NCBI GenBank assembly: GCA_022703425.1
Contig: JAKLDQ010000003.1
Location: 1,729 to 65,728 of the forward strand
From: Patescibacteria group bacterium
GTDB taxonomy: Bacteria > Patescibacteriota > Minisyncoccia > Minisyncoccales > Staskawiczbacteraceae
DNA length: 64,000 nt
Direction of reading: 5' to 3'
A program made the position numbers and the translations under genes. Positions within the stretch are counted from its first letter, which is position 1. Every line of letters starts with the position of its first letter. Positions 13,874-60,004 of this stretch are shown here, piece by piece. The notes under the pieces are model-generated. The model saw nothing but the letters and a program-made list of their open reading frames with translations. It was not told the origin of the DNA and did no database searches.

Positions 13874-13911
13874 AAAAAAAAGAGGCATATCCAACATTTG
13901 TTGGATATGCC
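13874..13911 (-). terminator. intrinsic terminator of candidate ncRNA A
   Basis: Minus strand reads GGCAUAUCCAAC-AAAU-GUUGGAUAUGCC (12-bp perfect stem) followed by UC-U8. Confidence 0.8.
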
Positions 13912-14503
13912 CTGCGCAGTGCCTGATGGTGCGTTCGGTTGCACCGGTCGGGTACAGACATCTGCGCCTGAGGCAAAACGCTGTTTGCGGATGCGATAGA
14001 AATCGCGGATGGGTGCGGCAAAGTTTTTGCGCCGGAACCCCGACGTCTCGCAAGACGCGTTTGCCTTATGGAAAACAGCTATTTTAGTTGTCGGTGCCTC
14101 TGTTTTCCTGACAGGCACCTATGTAAGGTCGCCCACTATTTATCTCCTGTGTTGGGCGTTTGGGCTTTTTCCGGTGCAGTACCCGGTCTTCGATTGTTGG
14201 GTGAACTGCGGCGGATGAAAGCCGTTCGAGGGGAACCGCCCTCGAGCAGTAATTTGTGTCATAGCGCTTTTACTGCAAATGCGCTCAAATAGTCGTCCAA
14301 TGCACACAATACTCCATTGCTAGGGCCAGGCAGTAAGGCTCGTTTGTTGCCTTTCATACCCCTGGCCGGTTTCCGCGGCCGTCGTCGGGGAGCCATTTAA
14401 TAAGCAAATCGATAGCTTTGTCTTAGCATAAGCCGTTCCTTTCTAGCCAGCTGTGTCCCATAGGTGAAGGGATTTCGCCAGCGGTAAAGTGTGCAACCTT
14501 CCT
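13876..14503 (-). ncRNA. candidate structured ncRNA A (~630 nt), class unknown
   Basis: G+C-rich and ORF-free, bounded by a consensus promoter and a strong terminator on the minus strand. Confidence 0.45.
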
Positions 14504-14510
14504 AGTATTA

Positions 14511-14539
14511 ATAATATCATATAAGCAAGGCCTTGTCAA
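14511..14539 (-). promoter_or_regulatory. sigma70-like promoter of ncRNA A (TTGACA-17-TATTAT)
   Basis: Minus strand: TTGACA 14539-14534, 17-nt spacer, TATTAT 14516-14511. Confidence 0.6.
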
Positions 14540-14589
14540 GTGGCATAAAAGCAATCAAAAACAGGGCTCTTTCGCCCCCGCTTTTTAAA

Positions 14590-17380: not shown

Positions 17381-17603
17381 TTGCTCTCCCTTCCTGTTAG
17401 AACAACTTGTAAACGTTCAATATTTGATTATAACATAATAATAGAATGATGTCAAATCATTTGCACAACAAAAAATCCGGTAACCCCGGATTTTTGTGTG
17501 CGCTGTTTTCCTGCACGGGAGGAAACATTTCCTCCCGACCCCTCCTTTGAGTTCGAGTCTCCTCATAATTTAAAATGCCCCCAGTTAAGGGCATTTTAAT
17601 TAG

Positions 17604-17676
17604 TGGACCCAAGGAGACTCGAACTCCTGACCCCTTCTATGCCATAGAAGTGCTCTACCAACTGAGCTATGGGCCC
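17604..17676 (-). tRNA. tRNA-Ala (anticodon GGC)
   Basis: Hand-folded cloverleaf: GGGCCCA/TGGGTCC acceptor with G3:U70, D arm GCTC-AGTTGGTA-GAGC, anticodon loop AUGGCAU, T arm AGGAG-TTCGAGT-CTCCT. CCA is not encoded. Confidence 0.9.
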
Positions 17677-17900: not shown

Positions 17901-18003
17901 TTTCGTTCTCCAAGAGTTCGCACAATAGTCCATTGTGCAGGAATATTGAGGAAATCCCAATATAATTAATTATAGCATGGTTATGGCTTAAAGTCAATAG
18001 ACG

Positions 18004-25114: not shown

Positions 25115-25274
25115 TGGAGTCGGCAGGACTCGAACCTGAAACCTCTTGCTTATTTCCATCGGCCTCAGATGATTTCCCGGGAGCCCAATTCCATTGGGCA
25201 TTGCGATTACATCTGAGAAGCTGGTACAAGCCGTGGAAATTTTGCAAGCGCTCTCCCAATTGAGCTACGACCCC
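25115..25274 (-). tRNA. tRNA-Ala-like gene with a 94-nt structured segment in place of the 7-nt anticodon loop
   Basis: GGGGTCG/CGACTCC acceptor (G3:U70), D arm GCTC-AATTGGGA-GAGC, anticodon stem CTTGC/GCAAG, variable AGGTT, T arm TCAGG-TTCGAGT-CCTGC. 94 nt lie between the anticodon-stem strands and fold into nested helices. Confidence 0.6.
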
Positions 25275-43037: not shown

Positions 43038-43124
43038 CCTTAGGAGTAAAACCGTTCGAAAAATTTCGGGCTTTGTTTTTTTGTATCTTTTTGAATTGAT
43101 GATACATGAATGTAGAAGAAAAAA

Positions 43125-43566
43125 TGCAATAAAAGAGCGCCGAGTCGCTCCTTTGGACGGGGGTGAAATATCCAAAGGTTTGCGAAACGGCGCATTACAC
43201 GGCTTCTTGTGCTTCTTAGTTATGGTTCAAAGCGCGAGCCAAAAGCTTGGTCTGGGCTCATACAAGAAGCCGAATATTTGATGAGGAGGGGCCTCCGGAA
43301 AGGTGGTTCCGGTGCGAACGGGTTCCCGCTCCTCATCCGAGAGCTACAGCAGCTCTCGACTTATATTATAAGCTGACGGACGTCCGAGGATCTCGGGATA
43401 ATCGGAAGAGGGCATTTCTGCATATGCAGAGGGTTCAGAGTGGAAACTCGCGGGCCCGAGAAAATTGCGAGCACTATCTAAACCTGCCATACGGCCGTAC
43501 GGCAATGCGCTAAGCAGGCGCCCTTTCTTCGGGGTCCTGCTTTCCGTCAGCTAAAAGAGCAATGTT
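43125..43566 (-). ncRNA. candidate structured ncRNA C (~440 nt), class unknown
   Basis: G+C-rich, ORF-free block between recR and a convergent gene, with a minus-strand promoter and terminator. A 9-bp helix AGCUGACGG/CCGUCAGCU closes a ~200-nt 5' domain, and an 11-bp helix CGGCUUCUUGU/ACAAGAAGCCG lies in the 3' half. Confidence 0.42.
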
Positions 43567-43572
43567 TGCTCG

Positions 43573-43601
43573 TATAATAGCATAATAAAAAACAGGCGTC
43601 A
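43573..43601 (-). promoter_or_regulatory. sigma70-like promoter of ncRNA C (TTGACG-17-TATTAT)
   Basis: Minus strand: TTGACG 43601-43596 (inside the upstream terminator loop), 17-nt spacer, TATTAT 43578-43573. Confidence 0.5.
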
Positions 43602-43615
43602 ACCCGCCTGTTTTT
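43586..43615. terminator. bidirectional intrinsic terminator
   Basis: A6-CAGGCG-TCAACC-CGCCTG-T6, overlapping the last codons of the 43599-43982 gene. Confidence 0.75.
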
Positions 43616-56326: not shown

Positions 56327-57787
56327 TCATTTCGGACGCATTAATGGAAAAATCTGGCACTCGCGGGCAGGTTTATCCATTAAGAATGCAAACAATCTTT
56401 CAGAAACACCGAACCCGCACGTCGGGGGCATTCCGTGTTCTAATGCCTCGATAAAATCTTTGTCGTATCTCTGGGCTTCTTCGTCTCCGAGTTCTCGAAG
56501 CTCCTGCTGTTTTGCAAATCTTTCTGCCTGGTCAATTGGATCGTTCAGTTCAGAATAGCCTTTCCCGTTTTCTGATCCCGCCAAAATAACTTGAAATCTT
56601 TGAACCAATTTCGGATTTTTTTCCATTTTCTTTGCCAATGGCTCCATAATTATCGGCACATTAATCAAAAAACCGGGTCCTGCAATGTTTTTTCTGCAAT
56701 ATTTCCAGAGATTATCAATAGCGCGGGTTATATTAAATCCTTCTTTATCGTATTTTATTCCAATTTTTTTTAATGCTTTCTCAATTTCGGGTAATCCGGC
56801 TTCGGCAATATTCACACCGGTGTATTTTGCAATTGTAGATTGATAATCGTATTTCTCCCACTTTTTATCCAAATCAATATCAAATCCCTTTATCTTGAAT
56901 TTAAGCGTTCCGAATGTTTTTTTGATTACGTATTTGTACATTTCCTCGACGAATTTCATTCCCTGCTCGTAATCGGCATACGCCCAATAAAACTCCATTT
57001 GCGTATAATCCTGCAAATGTTCTGCATCCATTCCCTCGTTTCTGAACTGTCTTCCGATTTCAAAAACCTTTTCAAATCCCGCAACCATTAATCTTTTTTG
57101 CCAAAGCTCGCCCATTGAAATGCGCATGTATAAATCCATATCCATTGCATTGTGGCGGGTGGTAAATGGTCTTGCATCTGCTCCTCCGGGAGTTGTTTCC
57201 AGAACGGGCGTTTCAACCTCCAAAAATCCTTTACTTGCCAGAAATTCGCGCATAGAATTCCAAAAAACAGACCTTTTTACAATCATATCCTTTACTTCAG
57301 GGTTAAAAACCACATCAAGATATCTTTTTCTTAAACGTTCTTCCACATCCTGAAGTCCGTGCCATTTTTCGGGCAATGGTAATAATGATTTTGCCAGCAT
57401 TTTATAATCCTCGGCTTCAATTGTCTTCTCTCCCCTTTTTGTTTTAAATAAATTTCCCTTTATTTCAATAAAATCTCCGATGTCAAAAACATCCTTAAAA
57501 AATTCAAAACCTTTCGGCCCCAATTTATCCTCCTTCAGCAGAACCTGAATTTTTCCTGTTCCGTCCTGAATATTCAAAAAAATCATTTTACCATGCTCGC
57601 GGATTGCCATAACTCTTCCTGCTAAAACGGCGTTTTTAAGTTTCCCGAAAACTTTGTCAAAACTTTTCAGCGCTTCATCAATCGAGTTTGTTTTTTTTGT
57701 TTTGGCCGGATACGCCAAAATGCCGGCTGCTTCCAGTTTTTTTAATTTTTCTATCCTTGTTTGCCGTAATTCTTCTATTGATGGCAC
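56327..57787 (-). CDS. lysS: lysine--tRNA ligase, class II
   Basis: OB anticodon-binding domain and class II motifs (FLEVETP, FRNEG, GFGVSERL). GTG start. Confidence 0.95.
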   Translation of the reverse strand: MPSIEELRQTRIEKLKKLEAAGILAYPAKTKKTNSIDEALKSFDKVFGKLKNAVLAGRVMAIREHGKMIFLNIQDGTGKIQVLLKEDKLGPKGFEFFKDVFDIGDFIEIKGNLFKTKRGEKTIEAEDYKMLAKSLLPLPEKWHGLQDVEERLRKRYLDVVFNPEVKDMIVKRSVFWNSMREFLASKGFLEVETPVLETTPGGADARPFTTRHNAMDMDLYMRISMGELWQKRLMVAGFEKVFEIGRQFRNEGMDAEHLQDYTQMEFYWAYADYEQGMKFVEEMYKYVIKKTFGTLKFKIKGFDIDLDKKWEKYDYQSTIAKYTGVNIAEAGLPEIEKALKKIGIKYDKEGFNITRAIDNLWKYCRKNIAGPGFLINVPIIMEPLAKKMEKNPKLVQRFQVILAGSENGKGYSELNDPIDQAERFAKQQELRELGDEEAQRYDKDFIEALEHGMPPTCGFGVSERLFAFLMDKPARECQIFPLMRPK

Positions 57788-57907
57788 TTTATAATAGCTT
57801 TCAGTTTTTGGCTGTCAGCTGGTTAGAAATATTGTATAATTGTAGCAAAATTAAAAACAGCGGTAAAGATTGTTGACATTACACGGAGAAAATGATATAT
57901 AAATTCA

Positions 57908-58029
57908 GAAAGCGGAAACTGCCTTTAGGGTTCATATTACAATTACAAGGAAATGCCTCCCAGGCAAGGCGCCGTCATGCACTTGTGTTCACCCGACACT
58001 CCCACAAGAGCATACGGCGCTCTTTTTTT
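57908..58029 (+). ncRNA. candidate ~120-nt sRNA, antisense to the lysS upstream region
   Basis: TTGACA(57873)-17-TATATA(57896) promoter and a terminator ending ...CGGCGCUCU-U7 at 58007-58029. The 3' ~65 nt are homologous to the 3' module of ncRNA C. Confidence 0.35.
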
Positions 58030-58038
58030 GCATGGCTG

Positions 58039-58064
58039 AACGGCTCACTCCGGAGTGAGCCGTT
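58039..58064. terminator. 26-nt perfect palindrome AACGGCTCACTCCGGAGTGAGCCGTT (hairpin family)
   Basis: Identical to 26445-26470. Lies just after the mrdA stop. Confidence 0.7.
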
Positions 58065-58075
58065 TGCGAATCTGC

Positions 58076-60004
58076 CTATCTTGAGAAATACCAATTTAAT
58101 ACATCATGGGCAACAGGCAGTGTTGCAGAGCGAAGCCCCGAAACACGCTCGATTGTCACAGTTATGACAATTTCCGGGTCATCATACGGCGCAAATGCCG
58201 AAGTCCAGGTGTTATAATGCCCCTCAACGCCGATTTCAGCCGTTCCTGTTTTGGATGCAACAGAAACCGGCAGCGAACTTAAATAATGAGCCGAACCGTC
58301 GGCTTTTGTCACCGCCATACGCATTCCCTCGCGAACAATCTGAAGATTTTCGTCGTCAATAAAATTACTTCTAATAACTTCGGGCTTGAACTCCTTCAAA
58401 ATTGACGGAGAGCCGGACGATGTATCTATTACCTTTTGAACAATTTGCGGACGATAAAGCGTTCCGTTGTTTGCAATTGCGCAATAAGCTGCCGCAACCT
58501 GCAAGGGCGTCACCATCAGATCTGACTGTCCGATAGATAAGTTATAAGTATCGCCGTTCCACCACGGCTCTTTTTTTGTTTGTTTTTTCCATTCAGGAGT
58601 CGGAATAAAACCCGAAAACTCTCCGGGCATGTCAACGCCTGTTTTTTCTCCCCAGCCGAAAAGCTCAAGATATTTTTTAATTCTTGCCGGTCCTAATCCC
58701 TGCTGATCTCCATATCCGCCTCCGACTGTGTAAAAATAAATGTTTGATGACACGGCGATTGCCTCTCTCATATCAACCATTCCGTGCGGAGTAACCCCGC
58801 CGAACCGATAAGACACGCTAGGGTCATTTTGACTGTAAACGACAATATACCCAGGGTCATTTATCTTTTTTAATGGAGAAATAAGTTTCTCCTGCAAGGC
58901 GCCCGATGCCTCAAACGGTTTTATCGTTGAACCCGTTGGATATTGGGCGGCAATTGCCCGGTTAAAAAGCGGCCGGTCGGGATCGTTTTGAATTTTGTTG
59001 TAATCGTTTAATGAAATTCCTTTTGAAAATAGATTGTTGTCATATGAAGGATAGGAAACCATTGCCAAAACAGCGCCCGTGCGCGGATCCATTGCAACTG
59101 CCGCACCTTTTTTTGAGCCGATGCTTTTTATGCTTTTTTCAAGCGAGTTGTATAGCTGGGTTTGAAGATCTGCGTCTATGTTTAAAACAATATTGTTTCC
59201 TGAAACCGGCTCTTTAACGATGTCGTTGCTGACCTCCTGGCCCAGAGCTGTTCTGTTTGCTTTTAATTCGCCCGGCTTTCCCCTTAAATAGCTTTCATAA
59301 GATTTTTCTATGCCTGTTTTTCCGAGATAGTCATTGAGCGCATATCCGCTTACCTGTCCGAGTTCTTTCTCGTTAATTCTTCCGGTATAACCCAAAACGG
59401 GAGACATAATTTCTGCCAGCGGATATTCCCGCGAGGTGTTTTTGTCTATCCGACAAGCAGTAAGCCGGTTCATTTTTGTTTCCAAAACCAGAAGATTTTC
59501 CTGCGGAATATTTTCAGCCACAAGAACCTGCGGAGATATGGATACATCAAATAGAGCGGAAATTTCCGTTGTCGGCTTGCCGAGAGAAATAGCTAATTCG
59601 TTAAAATAATCAAAAGCGCTGCTTTGAGATTCGATTTTTCTTTTATCACAAATCAGGTCGTATGCGGGCGAGTTAAAAACCAGCTTCTTTGAGTTCCGGT
59701 CATAAATAATCCCGCGCTCAGGCCTAATAAACGCAATTGCGCCCTTGTTGTTCTCTGAAATGTTCAGATACGCCGCTCCTTGGATCGCCTGAAGAAAAAA
59801 AGTTTTGGAAAATAATATTCCGGCGAACACAAAAAAAATAAAAAAGAGGGAATATGCAATTTTCTCCTGCAACGGAACTTCGAGTTTCTTTTCAGAAATT
59901 CCCATTTCGATCTGGCTTGTGTGCGCCATTTTATCCAAAAAAACTTCATGCGGTTCAATGCTTCCGTAGGAACTGTGAATTTTGTAATTTTTTTTGAAAA
60001 ACAT
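58076..60004 (-). CDS. mrdA: penicillin-binding protein 2 (class B transpeptidase)
   Basis: N-terminal anchor, PBP dimerisation domain, STIKPF (SxxK), SSN and KTGTA. Follows mreC-mreD. Confidence 0.92.
   Translation of the reverse strand: MFFKKNYKIHSSYGSIEPHEVFLDKMAHTSQIEMGISEKKLEVPLQEKIAYSLFFIFFVFAGILFSKTFFLQAIQGAAYLNISENNKGAIAFIRPERGIIYDRNSKKLVFNSPAYDLICDKRKIESQSSAFDYFNELAISLGKPTTEISALFDVSISPQVLVAENIPQENLLVLETKMNRLTACRIDKNTSREYPLAEIMSPVLGYTGRINEKELGQVSGYALNDYLGKTGIEKSYESYLRGKPGELKANRTALGQEVSNDIVKEPVSGNNIVLNIDADLQTQLYNSLEKSIKSIGSKKGAAVAMDPRTGAVLAMVSYPSYDNNLFSKGISLNDYNKIQNDPDRPLFNRAIAAQYPTGSTIKPFEASGALQEKLISPLKKINDPGYIVVYSQNDPSVSYRFGGVTPHGMVDMREAIAVSSNIYFYTVGGGYGDQQGLGPARIKKYLELFGWGEKTGVDMPGEFSGFIPTPEWKKQTKKEPWWNGDTYNLSIGQSDLMVTPLQVAAAYCAIANNGTLYRPQIVQKVIDTSSGSPSILKEFKPEVIRSNFIDDENLQIVREGMRMAVTKADGSAHYLSSLPVSVASKTGTAEIGVEGHYNTWTSAFAPYDDPEIVITVTIERVSGLRSATLPVAHDVLNWYFSR

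Follow-up and report, generated by a model that had tools for sequence, protein, structure and literature searches.

A 64,000-nucleotide (nt) stretch of DNA from a Patescibacteria group bacterium (contig JAKLDQ010000003.1, positions 1,729–65,728; the whole stretch is called the window below) probably carries, in the gap between lysS and mrdA, an independently transcribed small non-coding RNA gene. The 3′ part of this small RNA (sRNA) is a long hairpin, here termed the module, which also closes a second predicted RNA of the window, non-coding RNA (ncRNA) C, and 14 RNAs in related bacteria. To judge from the loci compared, the module is the lineage-specific end of modular ncRNAs in a Patescibacteria sub-clade (Staskawiczbacteria/Gribaldobacteria-like). 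We lean towards the view that it combines the family's intrinsic terminator with a 3′-protective hairpin, and sequence comparison points to the sRNA as a minimal and possibly young family member. The ncRNA family, which lies outside Rfam, is a more interesting result than the sRNA itself. In bacteria of the candidate phyla radiation genomes are tiny and hardly any regulatory RNA has been characterised; here the hairpin provides a search key for cataloguing, across metagenome-assembled genomes (MAGs), a multi-copy, strongly structured family absent from Rfam (123–720 nt, at conserved sites beside the essential genes lysS, mrdA and recR), and a natural bait for finding a protein partner. Even if the module is a terminator only, it still defines ncRNA gene ends where annotation pipelines see nothing and documents the islet between lysS and mrdA.

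A predicted promoter-driven RNA ending in a hairpin module

The sRNA lies on the plus strand, behind a promoter whose spacer ends in TG at 57893–57894, as found by direct reading and by a regular-expression scan; the promoter is thus of the extended −10 type. A consensus promoter scanner skips it solely because that scanner requires T at the final −10 position. We infer transcription of the sRNA from this promoter and the terminator-like end. An earlier reading of the DNA made without database searches (the sequence-only reading) had proposed a perfect promoter followed by a unit of about 120 nt; the sequence bears out both, and the end string was given correctly, but its shorthand CUCU-U7 held one U too many. 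The unit and its parts are as follows.

57873–57901, plus strand: sRNA promoter, −35 hexamer TTGACA at 57873–57878, 17-nt spacer, −10 hexamer TATATA at 57896–57901
57908–58029, plus strand: predicted sRNA, ~122–126 nt, with a putative start ~7 nt past the −10 hexamer and a putative end in U7
57908–57968, plus strand: A/U-rich 5′ segment of the sRNA
57969–58020, plus strand: 3′ module, a 52-nt hairpin, defined by the minimum free energy (MFE) fold and covariance model R1
57988–57994, plus strand: apical-loop UUCACCC, matching the U-C-R-C-C motif of type-1 modules (see below)
58006–58024, plus strand: alternative short stem-loop AAGAGC-AUACGGC-GCUCUU from a terminator scan, abutting the U-run and overlapping the 3′ arm of the base helix
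58021–58033, plus strand: tail UC-U7-GCAU, with the U-tract at 58023–58029

Three helices make up the module. The base pairs GCGCCGU (57969–57975) with ACGGCGC (58014–58020); a middle helix (AUGC/GCAU) and an inner helix (CUUGUG/CACAAG) lead to a 15-nt apical loop containing UUCACCC. The MFE is −25.5 kcal/mol, and the interior alone reaches a folding z-score of −3.0. Directly after the base, the unit ends with CGGCGC-UC-U7-GCAU (58015–58033). The whole unit has z = −2.4 to −2.7, a signal that comes from the module: the 5′ ~60–68 nt are no better structured than shuffled sequences (z = +0.24).

The second copy closes ncRNA C, which runs on the minus strand.

43128–43602, minus strand: ncRNA C with its promoter, TTGACG-17-TATTAT with TG, at 43602–43574
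43124–43193, minus strand: ncRNA C module, GCGCCG-UU-UCGC-AAA-CCUUUGGAU-loop(AUUUCACCCCC)-GUCCAAAGG-A-GCGA-CU-CGGCGC, then UCUUUUAUUGCAU

Both copies fold into an outer, a middle and an inner helix. In ncRNA C the middle helix is UCGC/GCGA, the inner helix CCUUUGGAU/GUCCAAAGG, and the loop contains UUCACCCCC; middle and inner helices differ in sequence between the copies and keep their pairing. The two window modules are homologous, with compensatory changes in their stems, as the sequence-only reading had claimed; its second copy stands at 43193–43124, one base away from where it had been placed. The frame that the two copies share exceeds chance by a wide margin. The 19-nt tail CGGCGCTCTTTTWTTGCAT has just two sites in the window at a tolerance of up to 3 mismatches (expected 0.11; none of 100 shuffles gave as many), and the frame GCGCCG-N25-55-CGGCGC likewise occurs twice (expected 0.07). 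Model R1 gives the sRNA module 45.9 bits (E 1e-9) and the ncRNA C module 49.3 bits, with the next window match at 15 bits and, with filters off, no further copy in the 64 kb; both modules were seeds of R1, so the independent evidence is that of the exact patterns. A small alternative terminator stem, also foreseen in both copies, is detected by the terminator scan beside each U-run (58006–58024 and 43154–43131). The promoters follow one layout, TTGACN-N17(TGn)-TAnnAT. Between the sRNA 5′ segment (66 nt) and the body of ncRNA C there is no significant local alignment, and the similarity is limited to the module.

Module instances in relatives

We compared 80 lysS loci taken from contigs representing one genome per species. 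In seven (L001, L002, L003, L006, L008, L015 and L020) the gap upstream of lysS holds a unit oriented opposite to lysS and ending in GCGCCG...CGGCGC-U(C)U5-8, the base being GCGCUG...CAGCGC in L008. An exact-pattern scan of metagenome contigs added five low-GC instances (L132, L135, L142, L147 and L153), its remaining matches being high-GC chance matches, and L160 was added from the recR locus of a relative whose LysS is 83% identical. Alignment A1 therefore holds 16 distinct instances, 14 from related Patescibacteria and the two window copies, and the family spans at least 16 RNAs from about a dozen organisms. The sequence-only reading had suggested a module recurring in a family of transcripts. 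Far from being an isolated pair with no conservation in relatives, the window copies have 14 counterparts, every one at the 3′ end of a promoter-driven unit of 123–720 nt that lacks open reading frames (ORFs), with a U-run directly after it.

Placement is conserved as well. A module-bearing RNA occupies the lysS–mrdA gap, in the same orientation, in L001, L002, L003, L006, L008, L015, L020, L132, L135 and L142; ncRNA C, L153 and L160 are adjacent to recR; and L003 has two members, L003a and L003b, at different sites. R1 scores the other 14 members, likewise seeds of the model, at 46–63 bits. Across 92 related loci it finds no additional copies and none away from ncRNA 3′ ends, and no modules in reverse orientation were seen there at comparable score.

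All 16 modules fold as a single long hairpin (−23 to −40 kcal/mol) followed by a U(C)U5-8 tract. Five of the seven base pairs at the foot are the same throughout, and the other two change in a compensatory way (C-G to U-A in L008; U-A to C-G in L001 and L002); 98% of base-helix cells are paired, against 16–71% when the partner is slid. The interiors (40–67 nt) are mostly unalignable among instances, each folding as an extension of the same hairpin and being more stable than shuffles (mean z = −3.3). They nevertheless fall into subtypes. Type 1, which includes both window copies and both L003 copies, has an apical U-C-R-C-C and a 3′ GAGCR, and L003a and L003b further share GUGUCRCC..ACAAC. Type 2, UCAAAAGCCCC-hairpin-GCCAACUG, is conserved in four RNAs with divergent cores, and type 3 comprises L132 and L142. 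A GAGCR...CGCUC pairing is possible in 5 of the 16 modules, judged by inspection of the sequences.

Stem sequences are diverse among the 164 hairpin-plus-T-run candidates that 748 kb of related DNA contain; GCGCCG is the commonest arm among the long hairpins and is confined to these ncRNA ends. A more distant relative, L158, has the same ncRNA core and an equivalent long hairpin followed by UCU8, with a base of different sequence, which indicates that the structural role is older than, or primary to, the particular sequence, the latter being clade-specific.

A separate observation concerns metagenome contigs of higher GC (0.55–0.61; L133, L136, L137, L144, L148, L149, L154 and L155), which carry many copies of a ~60-nt hairpin, GUGA-GCGCCGUUGGG...CCCGACGGCGC-UCU6-GAAC. 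Its base and tail are as in the module and the organism is unrelated; convergence between terminators or a separate repeat family may explain it.

A modular family of structured RNAs

The units found in the lysS–mrdA gap of relatives are usually large ncRNAs of 290–720 nt, built from a conserved promoter, optional 5′ domains, a P1/P2 core, an H-type pseudoknot and the terminal module. Examples, all on the minus strand in locus coordinates, are the following.

L001 3319–3900, minus strand: family member
L008 3552–3930, minus strand: family member
L003 7093–7530, minus strand: family member
L015 3293–3830, minus strand: family member

In the core, a long-range P1 (CUGACAGG/CCUGUCAG) and P2 (AGUUGGU/ACCAACU) are followed by UUAGCG, and P2 has the compensatory variants AUCUGGU/ACCAGAU, AGCUGGU/ACCAGCU and AGUUGGC/GCCAACU. 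The pseudoknot GGAG-UCCGC-CUCC-UUAAUAA-GCGG covaries too (UUCGC/GCGA in L015, CCGAA/UUCGG in L003b). Optional domains include GGCGUCAGAG..CUCUGACGCC and a 5′ domain with GGGGUACAG. ncRNA C, with a fold z-score of −8.9, has the same arrangement, with compensatory changes relative to nine relatives: P1 pairs CUGACGGA (43550–43543) with UCCGUCAG (43380–43373), and P2 pairs AGCAGG (43541–43536) with CCUGCU (43518–43513), then UUAGCG. A nucleotide profile (nhmmer) of the family core matches only its own seeds in the window, so the membership of ncRNA C rests on this P1/P2/UUAGCG arrangement. On these comparisons ncRNA C is a member of a structured, modular family absent from Rfam 15. At gathering score none of the 4227 models of that release matches the window RNA regions or six related loci; at E <= 10, two window regions and L008 give only spurious microRNA or snoRNA matches. 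ARAGORN calls no tRNA or tmRNA in these RNAs, and nothing on an RNA family of this kind in Patescibacteria came up in our search of the full-text literature.

The P1/P2 core is missing from some module-bearing RNAs (L003a, L132 and L142, and the sRNA at 57908–58029), which makes the family modular, with the promoter and the terminal hairpin as its constant parts. The sRNA shares with the family the module, an extended −10 promoter of its own before an ORF-free stretch, and the syntenic site, and lacks the core. It seems best described as a minimal family member consisting of promoter, ~60 unstructured nt and module. A second short form exists in L142, where a 123-nt unit consists of promoter, a ~55-nt 5′ hairpin and a module closest to that of the long L132 RNA. 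The sRNA 5′ segment has no homologue in more than 90 related loci, except in the same organism (L157). The synteny with larger ncRNAs, the family of ncRNA C outside Rfam, and the unstructured, unconserved 5′ half of the sRNA are all additions to what the sequence-only reading had noticed.

The lysS–mrdA islet

The LysS protein of the window is closest to MAG proteins labelled Gribaldobacteria, Staskawiczbacteria or Parcubacteria. The genes mreD-mrdA-lysS-serS form a string, all on the minus strand, so that the plus-strand sRNA is divergent from lysS and convergent on mrdA.

56327–57787, minus strand: lysS (lysyl-tRNA synthetase)
57788–58075: lysS–mrdA gap, 288 bp, between two minus-strand genes
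58039–58064: palindromic hairpin AACGGCUCACU-CCGG-AGUGAGCCGUU, a perfect 11 bp, between the sRNA U-tract and the mrdA stop codon
58076–60004, minus strand: mrdA (PBP2 gene), with its stop codon at 58076

Across relatives the gap holds a large ncRNA, a short RNA, one or two small ORFs, or nothing. This variability is seen upstream of lysS at L081, L009, L011, L012, L016, L142, L005 and L013; P0004 has a different neighbourhood, and L157 is the same organism. The small ORFs have their own promoter and terminator (88 amino acids in L081, 2526–3000), and these cassettes end in terminators other than the module. The lysS extended −10 promoter beside the gap (TGGTATTAT) stays conserved. On this pattern of content the gap is a fast-evolving islet.

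A 14-nt identity, ATTACACGGAGAAA, connects the sRNA promoter spacer (57878–57891) with the last codons of the 88-amino-acid ORF of L081 (2578–2591; E = 0.24 in a small database). Shared ancestry may have left it as a remnant, or it may be due to chance.

Role of the hairpin

A G+C-rich stem-loop, a U-run within 0–2 nt and a position at the end of a transcription unit are features of terminators that the module displays. A G+C-rich helix and U-tract ending an ORF-free, promoter-driven unit make an intrinsic terminator the reading that best fits the anatomy; a composite terminator was among the roles that the sequence-only reading had offered. What follows the modules is the end of convergent mrdA (58076) or recR (43037), with no same-strand gene continuing, and the relatives are alike. 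We propose that the hairpin would act as an intrinsic (factor-independent) terminator, halting transcription before a convergent essential gene (mrdA for the sRNA, recR for ncRNA C), and that the stable stem-loop would then remain on the 3′ end and protect the RNA. On this model the window copy would keep the strong promoter and the terminal hairpin, with ~60 unstructured nt replacing the large P1/P2 core of its relatives. The convergent genes each carry a terminator-like hairpin of their own. That at 58039–58064 has no U-run on either strand, and L001 likewise has a separate hairpin between module and mrdA; such back-to-back hairpins are expected if the module terminates the ncRNA.

Several points weigh against this reading. 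For an intrinsic terminator the hairpin is atypical, being 52–80 nt long and interrupted, with 1–2 nt between stem and U-run; in place of a compact, uninterrupted stem of about 5–14 bp with a 3–8-nt loop it has three helices, internal loops and an 11–15-nt apical loop; and what a simple terminator scanner detects is just the alternative short stem. Termination calls for a base rich in G+C, not for one fixed sequence. The invariance of GCGCCGU/ACGGCGC across paralogues with unalignable bodies exceeds the needs of termination, as do the conserved interior subtypes (UCAAAAGCCCC...GCCAACUG, U-C-R-C-C loops). The start, end and expression of the sRNA are, moreover, all predicted from the DNA. The closest relative compared (LysS 83% identical) has a small ORF and no RNA at the site, and because of this and of the unstructured, unconserved 5′ segment of the sRNA the gene could be a recent derivative or relic.

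The invariant base also bears on a possible, if doubtful, further function, in which the base and tail, perhaps with the interior or loop, serve besides termination as a site for sequence-specific binding or processing. As the target of a dedicated partner, either protein or RNA, it would tag otherwise unrelated ncRNA bodies of a single genome so that all are, for example, stabilised, assembled, localised or trimmed alike. Fourteen of the 16 instances have an unchanged base despite the unalignable bodies, where other terminators use diverse stems; paralogues of one genome share a module subtype (sRNA and ncRNA C; L003a and L003b); and across divergent RNAs the type-2 interior equals the P1/P2 core in conservation. 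The apical U-C-R-C-C is enriched (6 of 16 modules against 1.6 expected from shuffles, P about 0.002), with the motif chosen post hoc. Yet it is missing from the other 10, no trace of a partner was found, and L158 retains the ncRNA core with a different hairpin base; shared descent and strong selection on terminator strength within a small clade could account for the conservation. We regard as speculative a bolder version of this idea, in which the invariant base-UCU(n) and the subtype interior form a shared 3′ address by which a single protein or ribonucleoprotein machinery would capture a modular set of ncRNAs. These ncRNAs may be built from interchangeable domains: a pseudoknotted P1/P2 core, a GGCGUCAGAG domain, a GGGGUACAG domain, or almost nothing. 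The sRNA would then be a bare tag with a free 60-nt arm, acting for example as competitor, decoy or guide, and the family a previously unrecognised RNA–protein system specific to the candidate phyla radiation.

The loop itself has fared less well. UUCACCC, which the sequence-only reading treated as a recurring element, is indeed in the apical loop of the window module; as a family feature it does not hold up, TTCACC being present in 4 of 16 family RNAs and U-C-R-C-C in 6 of 16 modules. The hairpin UCCC-UUCACCUAU-GGGA with the same hexamer is present at 14456–14472 in ncRNA A (described below), and the proposed link to it is unsupported and compatible with chance: the window has 25 TTCACC against 29 expected, and 6 TTCACCC against 7. 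A target signal complementary to UUCACCC, also suggested, was not found in the window, where GGGUGAA is not enriched. Regulatory sRNAs of the RsaE/RoxS kind act through a C-rich loop as anti-Shine-Dalgarno elements; for the C-rich loop here (UCACCC, CUCCC), no preference for start-codon regions showed up within the 64 kb. Against 56 crudely called start regions it averages −5.7 kcal/mol, compared with −6.9 kcal/mol at random positions, and its duplex energies with those regions are no better than those of shuffled loops. For the sRNA 5′ segment, the best trans duplexes within the 64 kb lie in the range of shuffled queries. A tRNA, tmRNA or T-loop identity, considered for UUCACCC and for GGGUUCAAAUCCCC in L001, found no backing from ARAGORN.

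It is also conceivable, although we think it unlikely, that the short unit arose by deletion from a large ncRNA of the family and is now decaying, with promoter and terminator surviving and no function of its own remaining. Neither the P1/P2 core nor any other family domain is present in it, its 5′ part is without structure (z = +0.24) or homologue, the gap turns over quickly, and within the 64 kb no trans target stands out. Neutral decay, however, should erode both the promoter, which is a near-consensus extended −10 type, and the module, in which compensatory changes have preserved all three helices. L142 has a short form of equal size (123 nt), and base-pairing sRNAs normally have this layout too, a terminator hairpin after an unstructured 5′ region. 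Translation of a plus-strand ORF at 57892–58167 (91 amino acids), or of a 28-codon ORF starting at 57954, is highly improbable. The ATG at 57892 does sit 4 nt after GGAG, a weaker promoter-like site at 57812–57840 could include the ORF, and several relatives have small ORFs in this gap; but that ATG falls within the strong promoter's spacer, before the −10 hexamer, and the frame crosses both the hairpin and U7, continuing for 92 nt antisense to the mrdA end. The 91-amino-acid product matches nothing in Pfam and is not similar to the 88-amino-acid ORF of L081 (E = 32), and the 28-codon ORF stops beyond the U-tract. A minus-strand element, whether an mrdA terminator or 3′ untranslated region or a lysS leader or attenuator, might be considered, given that the base is palindromic, that the minus-strand RNA folds too, that mreD, mrdA, lysS and serS are all minus-strand genes and that a weak minus-strand terminator-like site lies at 57970–57955. 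We consider it very unlikely: the U-run is on the promoter-defined strand in 16 of 16 instances with no A-run upstream, R1 gives the opposite strand 8.8 bits against 45.9, the minus-strand fold is no better than shuffles (z = −1.2), Rfam has no T-box or other leader match, and the recR-adjacent copies have neither lysS nor mrdA context. Terminators commonly share G+C-rich stems and U-runs, and unrelated high-GC contigs contain chance matches to the module pattern; even so, a fortuitous likeness between two terminators of separate origin, or an element of the REP or attC kind, whether dispersed repeat or mobile, has a practically negligible probability in view of the exact 7 + 19-nt frame common to both window copies, the two copies in 64 kb with none in 92 related loci outside ncRNA 3′ ends, and a syntenic placement with no recombinase, no arrays and no family matches in viral contigs. 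A phage or mobile origin was examined in IMG/VR with the module pattern and a core 15-mer, and both gave unrelated matches only, mostly high-GC or coding.

Comparison with known systems

Intrinsic terminators can double as the 3′ stem-loops of bacterial sRNAs, and in enterobacteria the hairpin and U-tail are bound by Hfq or ProQ/FinO-domain proteins. The module resembles such elements in its G+C-rich helix and U-tract ending a short, promoter-driven non-coding unit, and the sRNA resembles their hosts in having an unstructured 5′ region and a terminal hairpin as its most conserved part. In contrast to the 5–14 bp and small loop of the known examples, the module is 52–80 nt long and interrupted, and its 7-bp base is one fixed sequence across paralogous and orthologous RNAs.

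The family as a whole recalls OLE, GOLLD, ROOL, HEARO and raiA, large structured ncRNAs of restricted lineage that Rfam catalogues and whose functions are unknown or only now emerging, with which it shares a length of 290–720 nt, its own promoter and terminator, strong structure, restriction to one lineage and long-range helices with compensatory changes. It differs from them in lacking an Rfam match, in its modular, variable domains and in having several paralogues per genome, and the sRNA differs further in being without the core domains. Integron attC sites and REP elements likewise have a conserved palindromic base and a variable, foldable interior, and the gap with its differing small 'cassettes' recalls them. 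The module, however, has a fixed polarity with a U-run and is always the 3′ end of a promoter-driven RNA, with one copy per site and neither integrase nor arrays.

Other observations

Elsewhere in the window, ncRNA A is an ORF-poor unit of ~620 nt (13880–14540, minus strand) with promoter TTGACA-N17(TGa)-TATTAT. It ends in a classic terminator, GGCAUAUCCAAC-AAAU-GUUGGAUAUGCC-U8, which differs from the module; it has no Rfam match, and the module is absent from it.

In a relative's recR-adjacent gap (L159, 2128–2523), a T-arm-like sequence, GGUUCGACUCCGGC, lies on the recR strand inside a structured region of ~300 nt, with no tRNA or tmRNA call by ARAGORN.

A tRNA-like gene at 25115–25274 (minus strand) scores 45 bits with the Rfam tRNA model and is not called by ARAGORN. 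It has an insertion of ~88 nt inside the anticodon loop, between CUUGC and GCAAG, which is shorter than the group I introns known to us. Group I introns in Patescibacteria tRNA genes are among the matters reported in PMC13011429.

Two minus-strand promoters, at 17997 and 47748, share an extended −10 layout, TTGAC-N12-13-ATGCTA(TAAT). The promoter at 17997 precedes tRNA-Ala (17603–17676) by ~280 nt and falls within a 623-bp ORF-free gap, a placement that suggests another non-coding leader or RNA.

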